Shown one piece after another: positions 3,968 through 45,300 of a stretch of 64,000 nucleotides of DNA; the stretch's first letter is position 1; the number at the start of each line of letters is the position of its first letter. The position numbers and the translations under genes are program-made. This stretch comes from Acidobacteria bacterium RIFCSPLOWO2_02_FULL_67_21 (GTDB taxonomy: Bacteria > Acidobacteriota > Vicinamibacteria > Vicinamibacterales > UBA2999), in contig MEKU01000003.1 in the NCBI GenBank assembly GCA_001767195.1, positions 20,710-84,709 on the forward strand. Direction: 5' to 3'. The notes beneath the pieces were generated by a model. That model was not told where the DNA came from. It made no database searches and worked only from the letters and a program-made list of their open reading frames with translations.

Positions 3968-4888
3968 CTAGAGCTCTAGTTCAGGAAAAAACGCCCGTGC
4001 GATCTTCACGACTACCGGACCGAAGCAGACGACGTAGAGCGCGGGGAACAGGCACAGCACCAGCGGAAATACGAGCTTGACGCCGACCTTGTTCGCCCGC
4101 TCTTCCGCGTGCTGGCGGCGCTTCGTACGAGATGTCTCCGCCTGGACGCGAAGGGCATCGCTGACGCTCGTCCCGAAGCGGTCAGTCTGTGAGAGCATTG
4201 AGACCAACGTGCGCACATCCTCGACGCCGGTCCGTTGTGAGAAATTGCGAAAAGCCTCAAGCCGTGCCTTTCCGGCTCGCGTTTCGGTGACGATCATCCG
4301 AAGTTCATCCGCCAATGCGGGGTGCGCGATGTGCAGTTCCTCAGAAGCCTTCGCGAGCGCCTGATCCAACGCGCTTCCCGCTTCGACGCACACCGTCAGC
4401 AGATCGAGAGCGTCTGGGAGCCCGTTCTGAATGGCTTTTTGCCGCATCCCCGTCTTACGGCCGAGGTACAGTCCGGGAGCGGCATATCCGAGGGCGCCAA
4501 CGAAGAGTGCCGGAAGTACCCCGTTTCGAAAGCCGAATATGGTGAGAGCGGCAAGCCCCAGGACGACAGGAAGTAACATCTCCGACAGCGCAAAGACAAC
4601 AACAGCTTTGTAGGCCGGATACCCTGCCCGAGTGAGCCGCCGCTGCAGCCGCGACATGTCCTTCGGGCTTTTCGGGATGAGTCGCGTCAACCGCGCAAGC
4701 ATCGGATCGGGCGCGTCGGCCAATGCGGCGGGGCCGTTCACCATGCCAGAGGCGCTTGCACCAACTACGGCGCGCAACCGCCGATGGGTCGCCGTGTCGT
4801 CGATCAGCCACCGTGATGCCATCGTGGCTGTCACCACAGCCACGAGAACGAAGATGCCGCCTATCGCAATCAGCACTGCAGGCGTCAT
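3968..4888 (-). CDS. tadC: Flp pilus assembly inner-membrane platform protein TadC (T2SS F family)
   Basis: 306-aa polytopic membrane ORF with a T2SSF-type cytoplasmic domain (LPDALDLLTVCVEAGSALDQAL), directly after tadB. Confidence 0.85.
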   Translation of the reverse strand: MTPAVLIAIGGIFVLVAVVTATMASRWLIDDTATHRRLRAVVGASASGMVNGPAALADAPDPMLARLTRLIPKSPKDMSRLQRRLTRAGYPAYKAVVVFALSEMLLPVVLGLAALTIFGFRNGVLPALFVGALGYAAPGLYLGRKTGMRQKAIQNGLPDALDLLTVCVEAGSALDQALAKASEELHIAHPALADELRMIVTETRAGKARLEAFRNFSQRTGVEDVRTLVSMLSQTDRFGTSVSDALRVQAETSRTKRRQHAEERANKVGVKLVFPLVLCLFPALYVVCFGPVVVKIARAFFPELEL

Positions 4889-5857: not shown

Positions 5858-7183
5858 TCAGGCAACGAGCTTGGTATGCTCGAACATGGAGACCGGAAGC
5901 TGGTGACCAGACGCAGCCAGTTGCTCGGCGCATTTGGGCCGGATGCCTGTGGCCTTGAAGCGCCCGCGCACCCGTCCGTCTTCCCCGATTCCCGTCTTCT
6001 CAAAAAGAAAAATGTCCTGCATGGCGATCACATCGCGCTCCATGCCGGTGATCTCCGTGATCGCGACAACACGCCTCGTGCCATCGGCCTGTCGCGCGAT
6101 CTGCACGACAAGGTCGAGCGCCGAGGCAACCTGCTGACGGATTGCCCTTTCGGGAATATTCAGGTTGGCCATCGCCACCATCGTGTCGAGCCGGTACAGC
6201 GCGTCACGCGAGCTGTTCGCGTGAATGGTCGTCAAGCTGCCGTCATGCCCCGTATTCATCGCCTGAAGCATGTCGAGCGCTTCTTCGCCTCGCACCTCGC
6301 CGACGACGATGCGGTCGGGTCGCATACGCAGGGCGTTGACCACCAGTTCGCGCTGGCGCACGTGCCCTTTCCCTTCAATATTGGCGGGCCGGGTCTCGAG
6401 CCGCACCACATGCCGCTGCCGCAGCATGAGCTCCGCCGCGTCCTCAATCGTCACGACGCGCTCGGTGTTGCCGATGAAGCTCGAGAGCACATTCAACAGC
6501 GTCGTCTTCCCCGCGCCGGTGCCCCCAGACACGATAACGTTCAACCGGCACGAGACTGCGGCATGGAGAAAGTCGAGCATCGGCTGTGTGAGTGAATTGC
6601 GATTGACCAGGTCCTGTGCGCCGAGACGATCTGTACGAAAGCGGCGGATGGACAGCACGGGGCCGTCAAGCGCCAGCGGCGGAATGATGGCGTTGACGCG
6701 GGAACCGTCCTTCAGCCGCGCGTCCACCATCGGGCTCGACTCGTCGATGCGTCTGCCGACGGCGCTGACGATTCGTTCGATGATCTGGAGGAGATGACGA
6801 TCGTCCCGGAAGACGATGTCAGCCTCCTCGAGACGCCCTTCACGCTCGATGTAGACCTGATCGCATCGGTTGACCAGGATGTCCGAGACGGAGGGATCGG
6901 CCAGCAGCGCCTCCAGCGGACCAAGACCGAACAGTTCGTTCAGGACGTCGACGATGAGCAGCTCGCGCTCGGCCAGCGTGAGCGGCAGCTTCTCCTCCTC
7001 ACGTCGAAGCATCCCGAGAATCAGCGTGCGGAGCTCCTGCTCCGCATCCTCGCGTTTCACCTGTGTCAGGCGGTCCAGGTTGAGCCGATTCAGCAGCTCC
7101 GAGTGGATGCGTCCTTTGAGCGCCTGATACTGCGGAACGCGGGTATCGGCGGAGACTGATTGCGTCATTACCGGTGTCGGCAC
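5858..7183 (-). CDS. cpaF: Tad secretion ATPase CpaF/TadA (VirB11-like traffic ATPase)
   Basis: 441 aa with Walker [10 protein letters not shown], then [12 protein letters not shown] and [15 protein letters not shown], all typical of the CpaF/TadA family. Confidence 0.95.
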
Positions 7184-37944: not shown

Positions 37945-38625
37945 TGCTCCTACCGAGCGTGAGCACGAAGAGCCGCGTGCGTCGGTACTGGCCCGTCTGC
38001 GGGTGGCGCACCATCGGGCCGTCGCCGTAGTCGACCTGGCCTTCCTCGCCGGGCGCCGTGGTGATCACCACCCGTGCCTCCGCCGCCGTCGTCCCGCGGA
38101 GCGTCTGCACAAAGCGCCGGACACTGGCATACCGCGCGCGCAAGCCGTGATCGTCGACGAGGTCCTGCCAGATCGCCATCGCGTTGCGTCCGCGCCCGAG
38201 CGCCTCGGCGACGAGCTCTCGGTACGGCTCGCATGCGCTCGCACTCGGCGCACGGCCCGGACGCGCGGCCGGAGCTGAGTCGGTGGACACCTCCGCCCAC
38301 CCTGGTGGCCGGTTTTGGGGCCTCCGAGTCGGTGGACACCTCCTCGGAAATTGCCGGTTTTGGTTCTGATTCGCTGGAACGACCGCGGCCCCGTACCGGA
38401 ATGCCGGCCGCTTTCAGGTAGCCGCCGATCGTCTCGCGGCGGACGCCGGTCGCCTCCTGGATGCGGGACAGCGTCCCGCCCAAACGCCCCAGCGCGCGGA
38501 TTTCCTGCTGTTTGTGGTCGTCCAAGACGTTGCTCATGCCAGCGACGGAACCTGCGTTCCGTGCCCGCGTCAACGTCTCGGCCGGGTCAGTTAATTGCCG
38601 GTTTTGGGTGTCCACCGAGGGGTGG
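37945..38625 (-). mobile_element. istA: Truncated IS21-family element (left end plus frameshifted 5' part of istA)
   Basis: istA starts at 38537 (MSNVLDDHKQQEIRALGRLGGTLSRIQEATGVRRETIGGYLKAAGI). It continues in another frame (EPYRELVAEALGRGRNAMAIWQDLVDDHG...QVDYGDGPMV...TRLFVLTLG) and stops matching near 37945. Terminal repeat block at 38570-38622. Confidence 0.75.
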
Positions 38626-39349
38626 TTGCGGGCGTCGCGGACGCCAGTGGGATTGAACTTCTTTCATCCCAAATGGTTGAGAACCTGCAGCCGGGGTGGC
38701 AACCTTCACCCATCAGCCACACCAATCGTCGACAAAGACATTTCACGGATAAGTCTGATTGTCTCCAGATTCCTGAGTCGGCCTCACGCCACGCGTCATG
38801 GTTTGCAGCAGCACTCGCGATGGCAGCGCCATTGCTCACAACCCTTCTGTGGCCGATTGCATTTCCGATATCAAGCGTCGCATGGCGTTGCTCGAACTGT
38901 TATCCATAACGGATGCGGCAGACGCACGCCGCCGCCGTCGCCATGTTAGTTCTTCAGGGACGCCCGATCGACATGAACAGGTACCAGCGATCGTAGCGGC
39001 GTACGTGCAAATGAGGCTGAGCGAATTGCATGAACGGGAAATGCTTCGCCACGCAAGGGAATCATGAACAAGCTGCTGCGGCTGTGTCTCGCGTGCATTT
39101 CTATCTGGCATCGTGAACGCGAAGATTGGCTGATGGAAGGCGGGATGCCGCGGTGAGAGCGTCCAGCACGATTTCTACTCACGCCAGCATGGGCCACACG
39201 GACTGATATTCATCACTTGCACCCCTCCATCCGCGCGAGAGTGCCGAGCATACGCCGCTCGCGCTCTCGCGTCCCGCCTCGGGAGTGTTCCGCGCGAATC
39301 CCATCGAGCCCACATGTGGGGACTGTCTCCCGATTCGGCTGCGCATGTG

Positions 39350-39925
39350 CAATAATCATCCGTTTCATGTCGACGTGCTCATCGTCGACGAGCTGGGCTT
39401 CGTGCCCTTTGACCGCCCCGGGGGCGAGCTGCTCTTCAATCTGCTCACCGACCGCTATGAGCGCCGCGCCACCGTCGTCACGACCAATCTTGCCTTCGCC
39501 GAATGGGTCACCGTCTTCGCCGGCGACGAGAAGCTGACGACCGCCCTGCTGGACCGCTTGGCGCATCACGCGACCGTGCTCACCACCAAAGGCAAGAGCT
39601 ATCGCATGCGCAAGCGCCGCAACCGCGAGGAGCCGTCGTGATCCCGTCGAGCGACCGTGGTCACCTCGTCACGTCCATCTTCGCCGTACACGGTGGGCGC
39701 TCGCCGGCCCAGGCCGGCTCACGCTGCCTGGAAGATCCCGAAGGAGGGATCAGATGTTTTGTCGTCAGGTCAGGACCACGTAGAATGAACCGCCCTCAGG
39801 TGGATCACTTTCCGAGCGGCGCGCGCAGATTACAGGCTCCTCCCGCGCGTCAACGTCTCGGCCGCGGTCAGTTAATTGCCGGTTTTGAGGTGTCGATTAA
39901 TTGCCGGTTTTGGGTGTCCACCGAG
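39350..39925 (+). mobile_element. istB: IS21-family remnant: 3' part of istB plus the right terminal repeat block
   Basis: VLIVDELGFVPFDRPGGELLFNLLTDRYERRATVVTTNLAFAEWVTVFAGDEKLTTALLDRLAHHATVLTTKGKSYRM is the IstB C-terminal half (stop at 39641). 39849-39925 repeats the 38570-38622 block, with AATTGCCGGTTTTG duplicated. Confidence 0.75.
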
Positions 39926-40175: not shown

Positions 40176-40235
40176 GGAATCTCGCGTGGTGTGCGAGATT
40201 TCCAAGTCCCTGTGGAAACCGTTCTTGGGTTTCCA
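40176..40235. repeat. Two adjacent 7-nt-loop stem-loops sharing GGAAA/TTTCC arms
   Basis: GGAATCTCGC-gtggtgt-GCGAGATTTCC (40176-40203) and TGGAAACC-gttcttg-GGTTTCCA (40213-40235). They are flanked by TGTGGGAA (40164-40179) and TTTCCACA (40247-40254). Confidence 0.6.
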
Positions 40236-40661
40236 TAGGGACGTCATTTCCACAGCCGTCTGGTCCGTGCGCGTCAGCGCGCCCGGAATTCAGGGATGCT
40301 GTACCCCTGTCGGCTCGTCGATCATCGTTCCTGGCGCCTCCTACGCGGCCGTTGTGATCGGCCGATCCATCTGATCGCTCACCGGCGGTTTCCCCGAGTC
40401 CCTGGTGGGCGCGTGCTTCGCGTCCACAGGGACGACGGCGTCCGCGCCTTAGGCCGCCGCGCGCCGCTCGAACGCCGCCGGACTGATCTGGCCCAGCGTT
40501 GAGTGTCGCCGCCGTTGGTTATAGAACACTTCGATGTATCGAACTTATGTGGCCGGTTTAGTCCAAGTTCGATTATGTTGGCGTCGTACTTATGTGGCGG
40601 CGCGCGGATTGTCGCCGTGAAATCGGCAGTGATTCTCATTGTGCCGTCACATAAGGAAGGG

Positions 40662-41685
40662 CTACAGACTCCGAAGAAAGGTGAGGAGGTCCCGGTTGTC
40701 CTTCCAGATCGGCGGTCCACTATCGTCCGGCTGGACGGCGCAGGTCGCGAGTGCCTTGGCCTTGGTGGCGAGGTCGATCTCGGCATAGATGTTCGTGGTT
40801 TCGATCGAGACGTGGCCAAGCCACGCGCGGATGGTGTTGATATCGACGCCGGCCCGGAGCAAGTGGGTCGCGGTCGTGTGCCGAATCGTGTGGGGGCTCA
40901 CGCGCTTGCGCTGAAGACTCGGCATGTGAGATGCGGCGTGCCGCGCGTGCCGCGCCACGAGATCATGCACACCGAATCGCGTCATCGCACGAGCGCGTCG
41001 GTTGACGAAGACCGGCGCCGTCGCCAGCCGATCGGCGATCAGCGTGTTCAGGACCGTCGCTGTGTTCGTCCACAGTGGACACCGCCGCACTTTCGATCCC
41101 TTGCCCAGGAGTCGGACTGAGGCGGGATGCGTATCCGGACAGATCGAGGTCACCGATGGTGACGTTGGCGACTTCGGTGGCACGCGCGCCGGAGTTGTAG
41201 AGGAAGAGGAGCACCGCGTAGTCGCGGAAACCCTGTCGCGTCGTGCGGTCAGGCGCGTCGAGCAGCGCGTCCATCTCTGGTTTTTCGAGGTAACAGACGG
41301 CGTCGCGCATCGCTCTCTTGAACGGAATCCGACAGACGTCGGTACACCATGGCAGATGTTCGGGGCTGCGTTCGCCGATGTACCGGGCCAGCGAGTGGAG
41401 CGCGGCTAATCGTTGATTTCGTGTCGCGACACCGCAGTGGCGCGTGCTTTCGAGGTGGCTGAGGAATCGGCGGATGCTGTCTGCCGTCGCGTGACTGATG
41501 GTCAGTCGATCGACGGTGGCCTTCGTGGTGGCCGCGAGGAATGGGATCAAGAGGCACAGGGTGTCCCGATAGCTGCGCTGCGTGTTCGACGCGAAGTTGC
41601 GCTCGCCGACCAGGTACTCCAGCAGGAAACGCCGTACCCATGGGCCCAGCATATCGGTGTCACGCACGGGACACCTCCAGGGCAT
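40662..41685 (-). pseudogene. Tyrosine recombinase, third gene of the trio (RitC-like), frameshifted near 41120-41145
   Basis: ORF 40963..41685 supplies the N-terminal SAM-like domain up to ...SGARATEVANVTIGDLDL. ORF 40662..41183, in another frame, supplies ...VRLLGKGSKVRRCPLW...HTIRHTTATHLL...LGHVSIETTNIYAEI. Confidence 0.75.
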
Positions 41686-42583
41686 AGCGCTCGAAACGGC
41701 GATTCGCCTGCTCGAGGAGTTCGGGAATCATCGTGAGATACCGCTGCGTCGAGACCATCCGGCGATGACCGAGGTAGGTTGACAGATGCGGCACAAGACG
41801 TTGGACATCTGCACCTTCGCGGTACCACGCCACCAGCCGGTTCACCGCGAAGGAATGCCGCAGGTCATGCAGCCGAGCACGGCCATCGATGCCCGCACGT
41901 GCGCGCAGGTGCACGAAATTCAGCCGTGCCATCGGGATGGTGATCGCCGTGCTCCGAGTGGTGATGAAAAACGGCGCGTCGGCTTCCCGTGCCGGACCGC
42001 GCGGCGCGCGCGCCGCGTGGGTGATCAGGCGATCGAGGAGGGTGGGACCGAGTGGCAGCGCGCGTGCCTTGAAAAACTTCGTCTCGCGAATCAGCAGCAC
42101 GCCAGCCTCCAGGTCGACGTCGCCGCGCGTGAGGTTCACAGCTTCGCTGATGCGCAGCCCGGCGCCGTAGAGGAGGAGCAGGAGCACTCGAAACGTCGGA
42201 GCTGCGATCTGACACCCTCGCCGGGCCTGATTGCTATCGATCGCGGCGAGCAACCGGCGCAGCTCGTCGTCATCATAGATGTGTGGCACAAACGTCGATA
42301 CGATGCGGGGCACGACCGTGGGCACCGGTGTCTGCGTGATGCGGCCTCGGGCGATCCAGTGGCGATAGAAGGCGCGGAGGGTGCGATGTTTGTTGAGCCA
42401 CGTCGTAGTCATGCGCCCGCGCCCTGATAGAAAGGCGGACACGGCATCGGGCGCTACGTCGGCGAGTTGCACATCACCGACGTGGCGACGAAACGCCTGC
42501 AAGATTTGGCGTTGGCTCCGAAAGCGCATGCCCATCGACTGCTTGAGATCGACGTAATGAGTGATCGCATCCGCCAGCCTCAT
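41660..42583 (-). CDS. Tyrosine recombinase, second gene of the trio (RitB-like)
   Basis: 307 aa with LLLLYGAGLRISEA, HDLRHSFAVNRL and LGHRRMVSTQRYL. The start overlaps the stop of the first gene by 4 nt. Confidence 0.85.
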   Translation of the reverse strand: MRLADAITHYVDLKQSMGMRFRSQRQILQAFRRHVGDVQLADVAPDAVSAFLSGRGRMTTTWLNKHRTLRAFYRHWIARGRITQTPVPTVVPRIVSTFVPHIYDDDELRRLLAAIDSNQARRGCQIAAPTFRVLLLLLYGAGLRISEAVNLTRGDVDLEAGVLLIRETKFFKARALPLGPTLLDRLITHAARAPRGPAREADAPFFITTRSTAITIPMARLNFVHLRARAGIDGRARLHDLRHSFAVNRLVAWYREGADVQRLVPHLSTYLGHRRMVSTQRYLTMIPELLEQANRRFERYALEVSRA

Positions 42584-43827
42584 CGCAGCCCTCCGAGATC
42601 GAAACGGGCCACTTCTCGAAGACCGGGGAAGTCGACTTTGGCGTAGATGGCGGTCGCGTCCGCACTCTGATGGCCGAGGTGGTCACCGATGTCCTTCAAT
42701 GACCAGCCTTCGGCAAGTAATCGCGTCGCACACGCGTGGCGCAAGGCGTGCGGCCCGTGATGCCGCGTCTGCACGCCGCGCGCGAGCAGCGGCTGACTCG
42801 CGAGGCTCCAGAGCCCGGCGCAGGAGAGCGGCCGGTACGGGGCGAGCAACGTGAGAAACACGTGTCGCCACTCACATCGCGCACGGACGGTGGCGATGTA
42901 GCGCACCAGCGCCCCACCCGTTTCGTTGGTCAGAGGATACACGTGCACGTCCTGCCGCTTGGACCGACGCACGCGAATGAGGTTGTGCTCCCAGTCGAGA
43001 TCGTCCAGCGTCAGCCGCGCGACTTCACCGACGCGAAATCCGTAGGTGGCAAACAGCAGCAGTGCGGCCCGGCGCCGAATGTCGGCCGGACGATTCGTGT
43101 CGTACCGCCGGATCATGGTCATCACGTCGGCCCACGACGGTCCCGCCGGCAGCGTTTCATGATCGAAGAGTCGCGGACCAGTAATGGTCACTGCAATGCC
43201 GGCCCGACACTGCTGCGTCGCTTCCGCATAGCGAAAGAACGCGCGCAGCGCCTGGGCGGCAATCGCGATCGATCGCCGACTCCACGTGCCCTTCCCCTTC
43301 ACGGCGAGAAAATCATCGACGTCCTGAATCGTCACGTCGGCAAACGGCCGATCGAGGCGCGCGTACCACGCGAGGAAGGTCCCCGTTTTCCATCGATGCG
43401 ACTGGATCGAGGCCGGCGCCAGCCCTTGCGCGTCCGTCATGTCGGCGGTGAAATCGTCGAGCACGGTCTGGAATGGAGGCACGGTCGGTGGTATCTCGCT
43501 CCAGCGGCCCAGATACCGGAGCCACTGTTCCGCCCAGTACCGAAAGTTCCGGATTGACAGCCGGCGACTCGTGCTGTGATGGCGCCGCAGTTGATGCGCG
43601 GCCCAACGCCGCGCCGCGGCCTGCACGACCGCTGCCTCCAAGGGGCCTGTGCCGGAGAGATCGAGACGGGTCGCGATGACGATCAGTTCGCACGCGACGG
43701 CTCTCAGGGTGTCGCGCGCGTACCCGAGGCCCTTCAAGTGAACGAGAAAGCGTCGTCGCTCTTCAGAAAACGGGCTTTCGCACTGGCGGGAACGAGCGAT
43801 GGGACCGGCGAATAATTCCTCAAACAT
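42580..43827 (-). CDS. Tyrosine recombinase, first gene of the trio (RitA-like)
   Basis: 415 aa with the catalytic region HGPHALRHACATRLL...LGHQSADATAIYAKV (R/H-x-x-R/Y pattern). Confidence 0.85.
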   Translation of the reverse strand: MFEELFAGPIARSRQCESPFSEERRRFLVHLKGLGYARDTLRAVACELIVIATRLDLSGTGPLEAAVVQAAARRWAAHQLRRHHSTSRRLSIRNFRYWAEQWLRYLGRWSEIPPTVPPFQTVLDDFTADMTDAQGLAPASIQSHRWKTGTFLAWYARLDRPFADVTIQDVDDFLAVKGKGTWSRRSIAIAAQALRAFFRYAEATQQCRAGIAVTITGPRLFDHETLPAGPSWADVMTMIRRYDTNRPADIRRRAALLLFATYGFRVGEVARLTLDDLDWEHNLIRVRRSKRQDVHVYPLTNETGGALVRYIATVRARCEWRHVFLTLLAPYRPLSCAGLWSLASQPLLARGVQTRHHGPHALRHACATRLLAEGWSLKDIGDHLGHQSADATAIYAKVDFPGLREVARFDLGGLR

Positions 43828-43959
43828 CGGCGGACTCCTTTCAACGGAATCCGCAATTCTGAGCCTGGTACTTATGTGGACTTCGCCGCGGGCTCGCCTC
43901 GCAGCCGTTGCGCAACCGGCGGCCGTTCACCACATAACTGCGGCGCCAACATAATCGAA

Positions 43960-44721
43960 CAACTCCATCTTCGCGTCCCCATGGCTGTCGAAGTGCTCGC
44001 CGAGCTCGCTCTTGACCGTCGAGAAGAAACTTTCCATCACCGCGTTGTCGTAGCAGTTGCCGCGCCGGCTCATGCTGCACACGATACCGCGCGTGTCCAG
44101 GCGTGCCTGGTAATCCTCGCTCGCGTAGGTGCAGCCCTGGTCGGAGTGATGGAGTAGGCCGATCTCGGGACACCGCCGTTTGAGCGCCATCTCCAGGGCT
44201 TTGAGCGTCAGATGCCGGTCGTTCACGGCGCTGACGGCCCAGCCGACGATGAATCGCGAGAACAGATCCAGGATCGCCGCGAGGTAGAGCTTGCCACTGC
44301 TGCCGATGACGAACTCGGTCGTGTCCCCGACCCAGCGCTGATTCGGTGCCTCCGCCTCGAACCGCCGGTCCAAGAGATTCGCGGCGACCGGCTGATCGTG
44401 ATCACTCATCGTGGTGCACTTGTACCGCTTCCGGGCCCGCGCCTTGAGGCCCTCCTCCTGCATCAACCGCACGACGCGCTTGCGGCTGACCGGCTCCTGC
44501 TGCTCGAGGAGGTCCTTGTGGATGCGCGGGCTGCCGTACCGGTGCTTGCTCTCATCGAACGCGGCCCGCACCAGGACTTTCAATCGCCGGTCGTCCCGCG
44601 CGTGCGTCGACTCCGGTCGGCCTTGAGCGGCATAGAAGCCACTCGGGGACACCTGCAGGGTCTGACAGAGCACCGTGACCGGGAACTCGGCCTTCTCCGC
44701 GGCGATCCAGGCAAACGTCAC
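43960..44721 (-). pseudogene. IS3-family transposase OrfB (DDE integrase core), interrupted by the RIT element
   Basis: NQRWVGDTTEF...LAAILDLFSRFIVGW...HSDQGCTYAS...SMSRRGNCYDNAVMESFF (DDE/rve pattern). After ELFDY the ORF reads into the RIT inverted repeat and stops at 43927. The last 28 codons lie at 40450..40535. Confidence 0.85.
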
Positions 44722-45033
44722 GCCTGGTGCCTGGCGAAGAAGGCCGCGGCTTTTTTAGGATGTCACGCTCCATCCGCAACTCGCGGACTTCTTTGCGCAG
44801 CCGGGCCAACTCCGCCCGTTCCTCGGTCGTCAGGCCCGTCTTCCCCTGGCTCCGATCTGCACGCGCCTGTCGCCCCACTTCGCCAGCGACGAGGGCGTCA
44901 GGTCCAACTCGCGGGCGACGGCGCCGACCGTCTTGCCCTCCTCCAACACCAGCCGGACCGCGCCGACCATGAACTCGTCAGAAAACTGCCGGCGTGGCCG
45001 CCGGCTCGCGCTGCGCTTGGCCATTCGGGACAT
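44718..45033 (-). pseudogene. IS3-family OrfA (HTH) with two single-nt frame breaks
   Basis: MSRMAKRSASRRPRRQFSDEFMVGAVRLVLEEGKTVGAVARELDLTPSSLAKW in frame 0. GRQARADRSQGKTGLTTEERAELARLRKEVRELRMERDILKK in the next frame. AAAFFARHQA-stop in the third. The breaks coincide with a G-run near 44880 and the A6 run near 44750. Confidence 0.75.
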
Positions 45034-45270
45034 CGTATCCACCTTTCGGAAGATGTCCACGAAACCGGATCAAGCCCAATGTGCCCCTGCATCCATTCGA
45101 AGGAGCGATTGCCAACTCACACTCGCGCTCTGAATCGAACGTGCGAGGTGCCCACTCAGGCTCACTGATGTCATTTTCCCACTGGACGCCATTCACGCCC
45201 CGTCGTTCTGCTGAACGCTTACTGCGCCATGACGGATTTGTGATCGTGGTGATGGTCGTCTGAAGCTTTC

Positions 45271-45286
45271 TGGTACCCGGTTTGAA
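45271..45286 (+). promoter_or_regulatory. Candidate sigma54-type -24/-12 element TGGTACCCGGTTTGAA
   Basis: TGGTAC-N5-TTGAAAT ends 14 nt before the ATG at 45301. The same motif and spacing occur upstream of the paralog at 22258, while the spacer and flanks differ. Confidence 0.35.
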
Positions 45287-45300
45287 ATGATGGTCGGTGC

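Follow-up and report, generated by a model that had tools for sequence, protein, structure and literature searches.

What brought a cluster of recombinase genes into the transposase gene of an insertion sequence, at a place resembling the cluster's own terminal repeat, is the question raised by one locus in a 64,000-nt stretch of DNA from Acidobacteria bacterium RIFCSPLOWO2_02_FULL_67_21. This whole stretch is referred to as the window; coordinates are positions in it, and L-numbers denote homologous loci in the scanned genomes and metagenome assemblies. We confirmed that positions 40539-43960 hold a recombinase-in-trio (RIT) element of ~3.4 kb, encoded on the minus strand and lying within the orfB gene of an IS3-family insertion sequence. 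We consider it likely that the element entered orfB by tyrosine-recombinase site-specific integration, through a double-core site of 8-6-8 layout that the target mimics, and that this copy has since decayed.

A preliminary description had recognized three overlapping tyrosine recombinase genes of 415, 307 and ~340 aa as a RIT, an assignment borne out by their positional best matches to reference trios. The genes ritA (42580..43827, 415 aa) and ritB (41660..42583, 307 aa) are intact open reading frames on the minus strand, and ritC (40662..41685, same strand) is divided between two frames (41685..40963 and 41183..40662). Membership was judged by blastp against PHG134/135/136 of pHG1, which have been named as RIT (PMC3414803, PMC2864759), and against a trio from a Mesorhizobium plasmid. 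RitA, RitB and RitC best matched their respective counterparts, at 7e-28, 8e-42 and 2e-58 for pHG1 and at 9e-125, 6e-95 and 2e-135 for Mesorhizobium, with matches between different positions of the trio at 1e-14 or weaker. The order RitA-RitB-RitC on one strand is fixed, each protein falling into its own subfamily.

The limits of the inserted DNA are set by a 6-bp direct repeat, TCGAAC, found at 40539-40544 and again at 43955-43960. With its help the span first given for the element (40536-43959) was corrected to 40545-43960 or, equivalently, 40539-43954; from inverted repeat to inverted repeat (40567-43960) the RIT measures 3394 bp. The host gene had been read as an IS3 orfB split between ...ELFDY and IEVFYN..., and this reading holds. 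Its 5' part (43961..44721, minus strand; NF033516 transpos_IS3 at 4.8e-89, with rve and HTH_21) ends ...HGDAKMELF(DY), and its 3' part (40449..40538, minus strand) reads Y-IEVFYNQRRRHSTLGQISPAAFERRAAA-stop, with IEVFYNQRRRHSTLGQISPAAFERRAAA and the stop codon at 40533-40449. Once the halves are rejoined, complete matches to rve, rve_3 (2-67 of 67) and rve_2 run across the joint. Because joining restores these matches completely, IS3 lost no codons. One T of GATTAC is gone at the left junction, which reads GATAC; the junction of a relative, L004, reads CGATTAC.

The right junction consists of ...CGCCAACATAATCGAAC followed by AACTCCATC, and the left junction of CTTCGATGTA followed by TCGAAC-TTATGTGG-CCGGTTTAGT-CCAA-GTTCGATTATGTTGGCG.... 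The IS3 target GTTCGATTAC and the RIT terminus GTTCGATTATG have 9 nt in common, and the resemblance noted earlier between the IS3 junction and the inner part of the other RIT end was recovered as well, GAGTTGTTCGATTA and AAGTTCGATTATG both containing GTTCGATTA. Part of the junction motif is native to IS3, since the intact related IS3 of L004 (455-1700) has GTTCGACTACATCGAAG uninterrupted (longer reading atggagttGTTCGACTACatcgaagtg). GTTCGA(Y)TAC is native to IS3. The preliminary description had also allowed that the similarity might belong to IS3 only, with the RIT ends lying elsewhere. We tested this: the terminus CGATTATGTTGG also ends RITs outside IS3 (L056, L057, L059, L064, L091 and an IS66 clade described below) and is present at the IS3-distal position 40567, so the ends do not lie elsewhere.

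Imperfect inverted ends with sub-repeats, previously put at ~100 bp, are indeed present, at ~91 nt each by alignment. The strongest inverted repeat of the region pairs 40567-40597 with 43930-43960 (31 nt, 90%), and an inner motif, CACATAAG at 40648-40655, has its inverted copy TTATGTGG at 43872-43879; it is because this inner motif is conserved that the terminal repeat extends to ~91 nt. Alignment of the ends with those of two relatives revealed a conserved terminal block of ~33 nt, then ~50 nt specific to each end, then the conserved inner CACATAAG. From the repeat search and this alignment, the ritC-side inverted repeat (40567..40657, plus strand) comprises the internal overlap GTTCGA (40567-72), the terminal arm TTATGTTGG (40573-81), TTATGTGG (40590-97) and CACATAAG (40648-55), and the ritA-side inverted repeat (43870..43960, minus strand) comprises TTATGTGG (43872-79), CCACATAA (43930-37), the terminal arm CCAACATAA (43946-54) and the TCGAAC overlap (43955-60). 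With the terminal variant CCAACATAA included, the 8-mer TTATGTGG/CCACATAA occurs three times per end. GTTCGATTATGTTGGCG is found at the two ends and nowhere else in the window, against an expectation of 0.18 (up to 3 mismatches), and ACTTATGTGG-like motifs number 4 against 0.76 expected.

Between the left junction and the ritC-side inverted repeat lies an extra segment, described earlier as 32 nt (40536-40567) carrying a third copy of the repeat. Such a segment is present at 40545..40566; it consists of an arm TTATGTGG (40545-40552), a 10-nt spacer CCGGTTTAGT and a truncated arm CCAA, which in relatives is CCACATAA. Aligned by eye with L004, L091 and 13 further loci, it is a degenerate copy of the palindrome TTATGTGG-TCGA-CCACATAA (general form TTATGTGG-N4-CCACATAA), an integral part of the element found across the family (a putative second core site), not a stray third repeat. 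The palindrome stands at one end of related RITs, the pHG1 archetype included, and palindromes at RIT ends have been noted before without interpretation (PMC3414803, PMC5737581). An origin of the extra segment in IS3 was considered and ruled out, the IS3 reading frame closing without it.

We propose the following route to this anatomy. The RIT site would be a Xer/dif-like core in which 8-bp inverted arms, CAACATAA and TTATGTGG, flank a 6-bp overlap TCGNNN (TCGAAC in the window); the two arms (TTATGTGG being the reverse complement of CCACATAA) are inverted repeats 7/8 identical around the 6-bp spacer. TCGAAC at 40539-40544 would presumably be the overlap, or crossover region, of a hybrid core site. 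Excision would occur by recombination between the two hybrid sites flanking the integrated RIT, and its product, a circular or hairpin intermediate, would carry two complete cores head to head and 4 nt apart, reading inverted repeat...CCAACATAA-TCGAAC-TTATGTGG-TCGA-CCACATAA-GTTCGA-TTATGTTGG...inverted repeat. Integration would pair one of the two cores with a target resembling its overlap and the first bases of its arm, and the crossover would lie within those 6 bp; the target consensus is NNN-YGA-YYAY, represented in IS3 by GTT-CGA-TTAC, which encodes LFDY. The product would have one end flush with the target; the other would retain the core that took no part, together with the outer arm of the one that recombined (the extra segment), and a 6-bp direct repeat would flank the whole insertion. 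The work would presumably be divided among RitA, RitB and RitC. Either core would be usable, hence the two orientations that are seen, and the asymmetry of the overlap would explain why the palindrome always lies on the same side of the target. The model thereby accounts for the flush end, the core-plus-half-core end, the 6-bp direct repeat, and free orientation combined with fixed polarity. Of all this, the anatomy, the repeats, the target consensus, the rule of orientation and polarity and the independent insertions are directly observed, and the intermediate, the place of crossover and cleavage and the roles of the three Rit proteins are inferred.

Independent insertions at one codon (in the window, L004 and L089/L090) support the earlier suggestion that the element integrates site-specifically, at a target mimicking its own recombination site. 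The closest relative lodged in a different IS3, L004, found by a genome scan in an Acidobacteriota metagenome-assembled genome, has a RIT 90.8% identical to that of the window in a host IS3 only 77.5% identical to the window IS3, inserted at the same codon (...AKMALFDY / IEVFYN) in the opposite orientation. On the IEVFYN side its junction reads CTCGATGTAATCGAAC-TTATGTGG-TCGA-CCACATAA-GTTCGATTATGTTGGCG, a perfect palindrome where that of the window is degenerate. Three diverged variants of IS3 orfB serve as target, namely those of the window, of L004/L069 and of L089/L090; L067 and L070 also have IS3 orfB hosts, their variant not being assigned.

A pattern scan of metagenomes with CCACATAA-N8-CCAACATAATCG returned 28 further loci and two kinds of end. 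Read outward from the inverted repeat, type-1 ends run ...CCAACATAATCG-NNN-target, and type-2 ends run ...CCAACATAATCG-NNN-TTATGTGG-N4-CCACATAA-N'N'N'-YGAYYAY-target. L071 displays both, with a TGCCGA(T) repeat flanking inverted repeat and palindrome. Type-2 ends lie by ritA in L004, L064, L084 and L085 and by ritC in at least 8 loci (the window, L059, L061, L062, L065, L066, L071, L081). Where the target gene could be identified, polarity was read from flank sequences and translations: type-2 junctions faced the 3' part of the target in 11/11, and the distinct type-1 junctions, 10 or more, all faced the 5' part, the L070/L067 class excepted. YGAYYAY directly follows the variable triplet in all targets; the element's own version is CGATTAT.

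The targets extend beyond IS3. In a sister clade with RitC 55-60% identical, the element interrupts an IS66 transposase gene (DDE_Tnp_IS66, 5e-65) between K(Y/F)(A/C/S) and DHLPLYRQ. This clade takes in L058, L060-L063, L065, L066, L068, L071-L076, L078-L081 and L083-L085; it includes both orientations, with the palindrome always toward DHLPLYRQ. The target in L064 is the 3' end of another tyrosine recombinase gene, ...MIYTHVLNQGG; there (1819-2117; RitA 69% identical) the insertion falls at the catalytic-tyrosine motif, ...MIYTHVLNQGGRSVRSPLD before the stop codon, so that a recombinase element disrupts a recombinase gene. L059 and L091 share as target an unnamed gene reading ...DY(I/M)(H/Q)LY..., with insertions at 704-860 in L059 (...TDYMQLYDGNADTLRQSLHRIQATA...; partial RitC ~90% identical) and at ~1650-1800 in L091 (...CDYIHLYRGDGKALSESLERIQRTA...; RitA, P0005, 87% identical); a RadC-domain fragment lies ~1.1 kb from the L091 insertion. 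L088 is a stand-alone contig of 3390 bp that starts TTCGATTATG and ends CATAATCGAA, the way in which a multi-copy unit assembles. L056 and L057 (RitA 82% and 75% identical) lack the ritA-side inverted repeat, homology ending ~40 nt upstream of ritA (L056 ~700-790, L057 ~4100-4190 and 5940-6240), and one junction of each is informative. L057 has an internal deletion that took away the terminal part of ritB and the first part of ritC, and its ritC-side end adjoins the 3' end of a glucan phosphorylase gene between ...TTRAV and R.

As judged by sequence, the 8-6-8 anatomy with 6-bp flanking repeats fits five lineages, and it recurs with arms of other sequence. In the pHG1 archetype, whose target is the IS66 gene PHG142, the junction reads CCGGCATAA-CGCGGT-TCATGCCG-CTAG-CGGCATGA-ACCGCG and then the target. 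A Mesorhizobium RIT (p_3) reads CACATTA-GGCATC-AAATGTG-N6-CACATTT, flanked by the 6-mers CGCATC and CGCACC; the RIT of Mesorhizobium huakuii (L087, 7286-8608) directly adjoins a group II intron reverse transcriptase gene. Desulfatiglandales RITs read CGGCATTA-CATCTG-TTATGCCG-CTCG-CGGCATAA-CAGATG and then the target, with CAGATG as the 6-bp repeat. The flanking repeat is TGCCGA in L071 and CAGATG in L043, and the two copies in L087 differ at one base (CGCATC / CGCACC).

One Desulfatiglandales chromosome (OY759599.1) holds four RITs that are 99.97% identical (L041-L044), in both orientations, within near-identical IS66-family copies interrupted between ...PLDNN and ICERA. Their palindrome is found at the ritA-proximal end in L041 and at the ritC-proximal one in L043/L044, and the internal core overlap is TAATGG in L041 and CATCTG or TATCTG in L043 and L044, L044 carrying symmetric changes in both palindrome halves (TATCTG and CAGATA). 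These internal overlaps may be a memory of earlier donor sites. Relatives of the element show signs of mobility in their different IS3 hosts and in these four copies in one chromosome. A simple palindrome scan placed a palindrome of this kind at one end, on either side, in 11/19 distant RIT loci. Among 53 loci with distant RitA relatives searched by tblastn for an IS3 or IS66 association, IS66-like DNA adjoins only L006, L025, L041, L043, L044 and L053, so transposase targeting holds for some RIT lineages and not for all.

Whether the whole RIT family uses a head-to-head double 8-6-8 core as its attachment site, integrating into core mimics in conserved codons of mobile-element genes, we regard as an even bet. 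The mimic sites found are IS3 orfB between LFDY and IE, IS66 between K(Y/F)x and DHLPLYRQ and after (L/I)(D/S)NN, and the 3' end of a tyrosine recombinase gene. If the generalization is true, RITs would be transposon parasites whose landing sites are multi-copy, dispensable and horizontally travelling, and which could be carried along in the insertion sequence that they disable.

Several observations count against the proposed integration route. No circular or hairpin junction with both complete cores and both inverted repeats was found among the scanned contigs. The window has one RIT and one IS3, with no further copy of either and no empty IS3 site; an empty copy of the exact window IS3 was not found, and the empty site is reconstructed from relatives 76-79% identical. 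The internal-core NNN and the junction NNN match in the window (AAC and GTT) but are not complementary in 8/13 type-2 ends, and the internal overlap of L041 differs as a whole (TAATGG versus CATCTG), so strict homology between the overlaps of element and target is not always kept; these mismatches would need an added assumption, such as donor-derived coupling sequences of the kind used by Tn554. L070 and L067 lack the palindrome, their flush ritC-side ends running into the IS3 3' part (ATAATCGAAGTGTTC), and they fit the model only with a secondary deletion, which may have taken place between two ATCGAA repeats, perhaps locking the element in place. L070 has two flush ends and is missing the IS3 bases TTACA. 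Opposite orientations, too, could stem from in-situ inversion between the inverted repeats, and no experiment has so far reproduced RIT movement (PMC10214605, Table 1).

The alternative that survives best, though we hold it to be improbable, keeps the same sites and makes folded single-stranded DNA the substrate: a hairpin would present one duplex core, and a single strand exchange would be followed by replication, as for integron attC or for CTX-phage attP(+) with XerCD. Nielsen et al. found RIT DNA protected from exonuclease, could not detect circle junctions and proposed hairpin intermediates (PMC5737581), and the Xer-like, simple nature of the Rit recombinases (PMC8138268) favours a single-strand pathway, as do the symmetric changes in the L044 palindrome halves. 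Hairpins of the intact relatives are predicted to be very stable (-16.8 kcal/mol, z -6.2, for L004; -15.8 kcal/mol, z -4.7, for L071), that of the window segment less so (-8.3 kcal/mol, z -1.9). The integrated anatomy, however, would be identical under single-strand and double-strand pathways and does not discriminate between them, the 6-bp repeats at both junctions are equally consistent with ordinary double-strand exchange, and a source of single strands, be it a rolling-circle or a conjugation function, is not encoded in the 3.4 kb.

Far less probable is that the extra segment is the scar of a second RIT end, left by tandem or nested insertion and later deletion, so that the true element is 40567-43960 only. 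Homology between the RITs of the window and L004 does span exactly 40567 to 43960 in blastn, the segment contains a TTATGTGG motif as the inverted repeats do, and complex RIT arrays exist in pHG1 (PMC3414803). Yet at least 14 loci of the window lineage, and 4 other lineages, have the arm-N4-arm palindrome at a single end, always at constant length and never with further RIT sequence; with inverted repeat and palindrome taken out, the reading frame of IS3 is restored exactly; and a random scar would not consistently face one side of the target. The least probable explanation, already largely refuted, is an old and vertically inherited IS3::RIT without site-specific targeting, its GTTCGATTA match coincidental or owned by IS3: L001, L002 and L082 do have the same junction as the window (L001 and L002 the same wider context too), the copy is decayed and GTTCGA(Y)TAC is native to IS3, but the RIT is far more conserved than its IS3 hosts (90.8% vs 77.5%) and oppositely oriented in them, the same codon was struck in three IS3 variants, YGAYYAY is common to non-IS3 targets, and CGATTATGTTGG recurs at IS3-distal 40567 and in non-IS3 contexts.

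RitA, RitB and RitC all match Pfam Phage_integrase (PF00589), RitA and the first ritC piece also match a SAM-like N-terminal domain, and the R-H-R-Y signature reported earlier for each was found again in the translations. The best NCBIfam matches are XerC and XerD, all below cut-off; because the similarity to these stays sub-threshold, we class the Rit proteins as simple Xer-like tyrosine recombinases. Across 25 homologues, the RitA residues R265, K290, H360, R363 and H386 show no variation, and Y395 is kept in at least 90%. The catalytic boxes read from the translations are GLRISE, HDLRH and LGH...RY in RitB and GARATE, HTIRH and LGH...IY in RitC, in which ~40 residues follow the catalytic Tyr (IYAEIDLATK...DLLTFLRSL) versus ~20-25 in RitA and RitB; an additional conserved helix at the C-terminus is an expected trait of RitC in RIT elements. 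RitA of RIT elements is described as having two consecutive core-binding domains (Smyshlyaev 2021; PMC8138268). An AlphaFold2 model of the window RitA (predicted local distance difference test score 81.7) agrees with this, placing two helical domains, residues 1-106 and 120-203, before the catalytic one; Pfam SAM-like matches are confined to 123-203, and the core-binding fold of the first domain is putative.

The genes are tightly packed, with overlaps in the 4-8 bp range typical of RIT elements: ritA and ritB share ATGA at 42580-42583, and the overlap of ritB with ritC amounts to 8 nt when the GTG at 41667 is taken as the ritC start, the start used in relatives L056 and L088. The ritC product would be 340 aa once a +1 frameshift is removed, or 334 aa from that GTG. 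Alignment with the intact ritC of L070, L056 and L003 located the inserted base within 41134-41139, between catalytic boxes I and II. The identical insertion is present in three independent metagenome assemblies (L001, L002, L082) and is therefore real; a sequencing error was ruled out on the same ground. Over 6-7 kb the window differs from L001 by three mismatches and from L002 by one indel, and an exact look-up of the RitA protein returned only the same locus in the same context, in two metagenome assemblies.

The frameshift, from which it had been suggested that the copy might be immobile, is joined by two further lesions in the recombination sites that strengthen this view. In the internal core, CCACATAA has been reduced to CCAA and the spacer expanded from 4 to 10 nt, and the hybrid core at the junction has lost one T; L001, L002 and L082 have the weak palindrome in identical form, as they do the frameshift. 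With its ritC frameshift, truncated core arm and 1-nt junction deletion, the window copy most likely cannot move without complementation in trans; it is a decayed relic without functional importance in itself.

The host IS3 is damaged as well. Its orfA region (44552..45060, minus strand; HTH_Tnp_1), with an A AAA AAG slippery site at ~44752-44758, is frameshifted at a C-run (44873-44876) in the window and in L001; L002 has one extra base at ~44874, so the lesion is polymorphic. Read by hand, the frame also shifts by one base somewhere from the slippery site to 44721, where orfB starts, a possible further orfAB lesion. A search for the terminal inverted repeats of the IS3 itself at 40200-40470 and 45040-45300 gave only chance matches of 7-9 nt. 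To the left of IS3::RIT, an IS21-family IstB fragment occupies 39285-39641 (PF01695 on the equivalent gene of L001), and TTAATTGCCGGTTTTG(A/G)GGTGTC repeats near 38560-38600 and 39872-39925 resemble IS21 terminal repeats. IS3::RIT lies in a region crowded with degenerate insertion sequences.

Little studied as a family, RIT elements have been reported from many phyla and are widespread; those of Cupriavidus metallidurans CH34 and C. necator pHG1 were reportedly described by Van Houdt (2009, 2012), Janssen (2010) and Ricker (2013). The element class is known, as is its insertion into IS66, a Tn6049-like transposase gene and radC; the interesting part here is the core-site model. Transposase genes on record as hosts are the IS66 tnpA containing ritA1B1C1 of Cupriavidus metallidurans CH34 and a Tn6049-like transposase gene in A. 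ferrooxidans, and radC genes of Cupriavidus and Bordetella are recorded as targets too (PMC2864759, PMC3414803). The searchable literature held no description of an IS3 target, a core site or target mimicry for RIT; it did not cover Ricker et al. 2013, the main RIT paper, and because that paper may already contain a description of core and target, priority is uncertain. In a table that compared tyrosine-recombinase transposons in 2023, both the target specificity of RIT and the way it moves are entered as not tested (PMC10214605). The window junctions and ~40 related ones now give a testable core site, an expected excision junction and a target consensus, on which excision polymerase chain reactions, an in-vitro recombination assay and a binding study can be based. 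Our findings also suggest that at least some RIT lineages specialise on conserved IS3 and IS66 transposase motifs and inactivate those insertion sequences, on which they may then ride.

Set beside the RITs of CH34 and C. necator pHG1, the window element has the same overlapping A-B-C trio in its own subfamilies, the same size (~3.4-3.5 kb), terminal inverted repeats and a palindrome at one end, and the pHG1 element has the same core-N4-core junction adjoining IS66. The differences lie in protein identity, only 29-37% between the window and pHG1 trios, in the arm sequence (CCACATAA in the window instead of CGGCATAA), in the host, probably a bacterium akin to Gemmatimonadota or Acidobacteriota, in the IS3 orfB target (LFDY / IE), which we did not find reported in the literature searched, and in the defective state of the window copy.

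Other systems are comparable at the level of site or recombinase. Integron attC x attI recombination likewise joins an imperfect palindromic site to a partner of relaxed requirement through a Xer-related tyrosine recombinase, but RIT has no cassette array, its palindrome is perfect and free of extrahelical bases, and single-strand use is only proposed for it. Tn554, the strand-biased circularizing elements (SE) and GInt also have several tyrosine recombinase genes in a row and no classical target duplication. Tn554 and SE, which do not require homology of the overlaps, carry a 6-bp donor-flank sequence to the next site (PMC10214605), which the mismatched internal overlaps of L041 and of 8/13 type-2 ends resemble. 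Unlike these three, RIT draws on other recombinase subfamilies, has neither a TnpC, Srap or Tfp partner nor cargo, and possesses long inverted repeats and a head-to-head double core. The likeness to Xer/dif lies in the simple Xer-like recombinases and in a core whose 6-bp centre is flanked by two short inverted arms; CTX phage has two inverted dif-like sites that pair as a hairpin. RIT departs from Xer/dif in encoding its own recombinases, three in number, in taking as target any mimic of the core and not dif, and in ends that carry extra sub-repeats ~20 and 80 nt inward.

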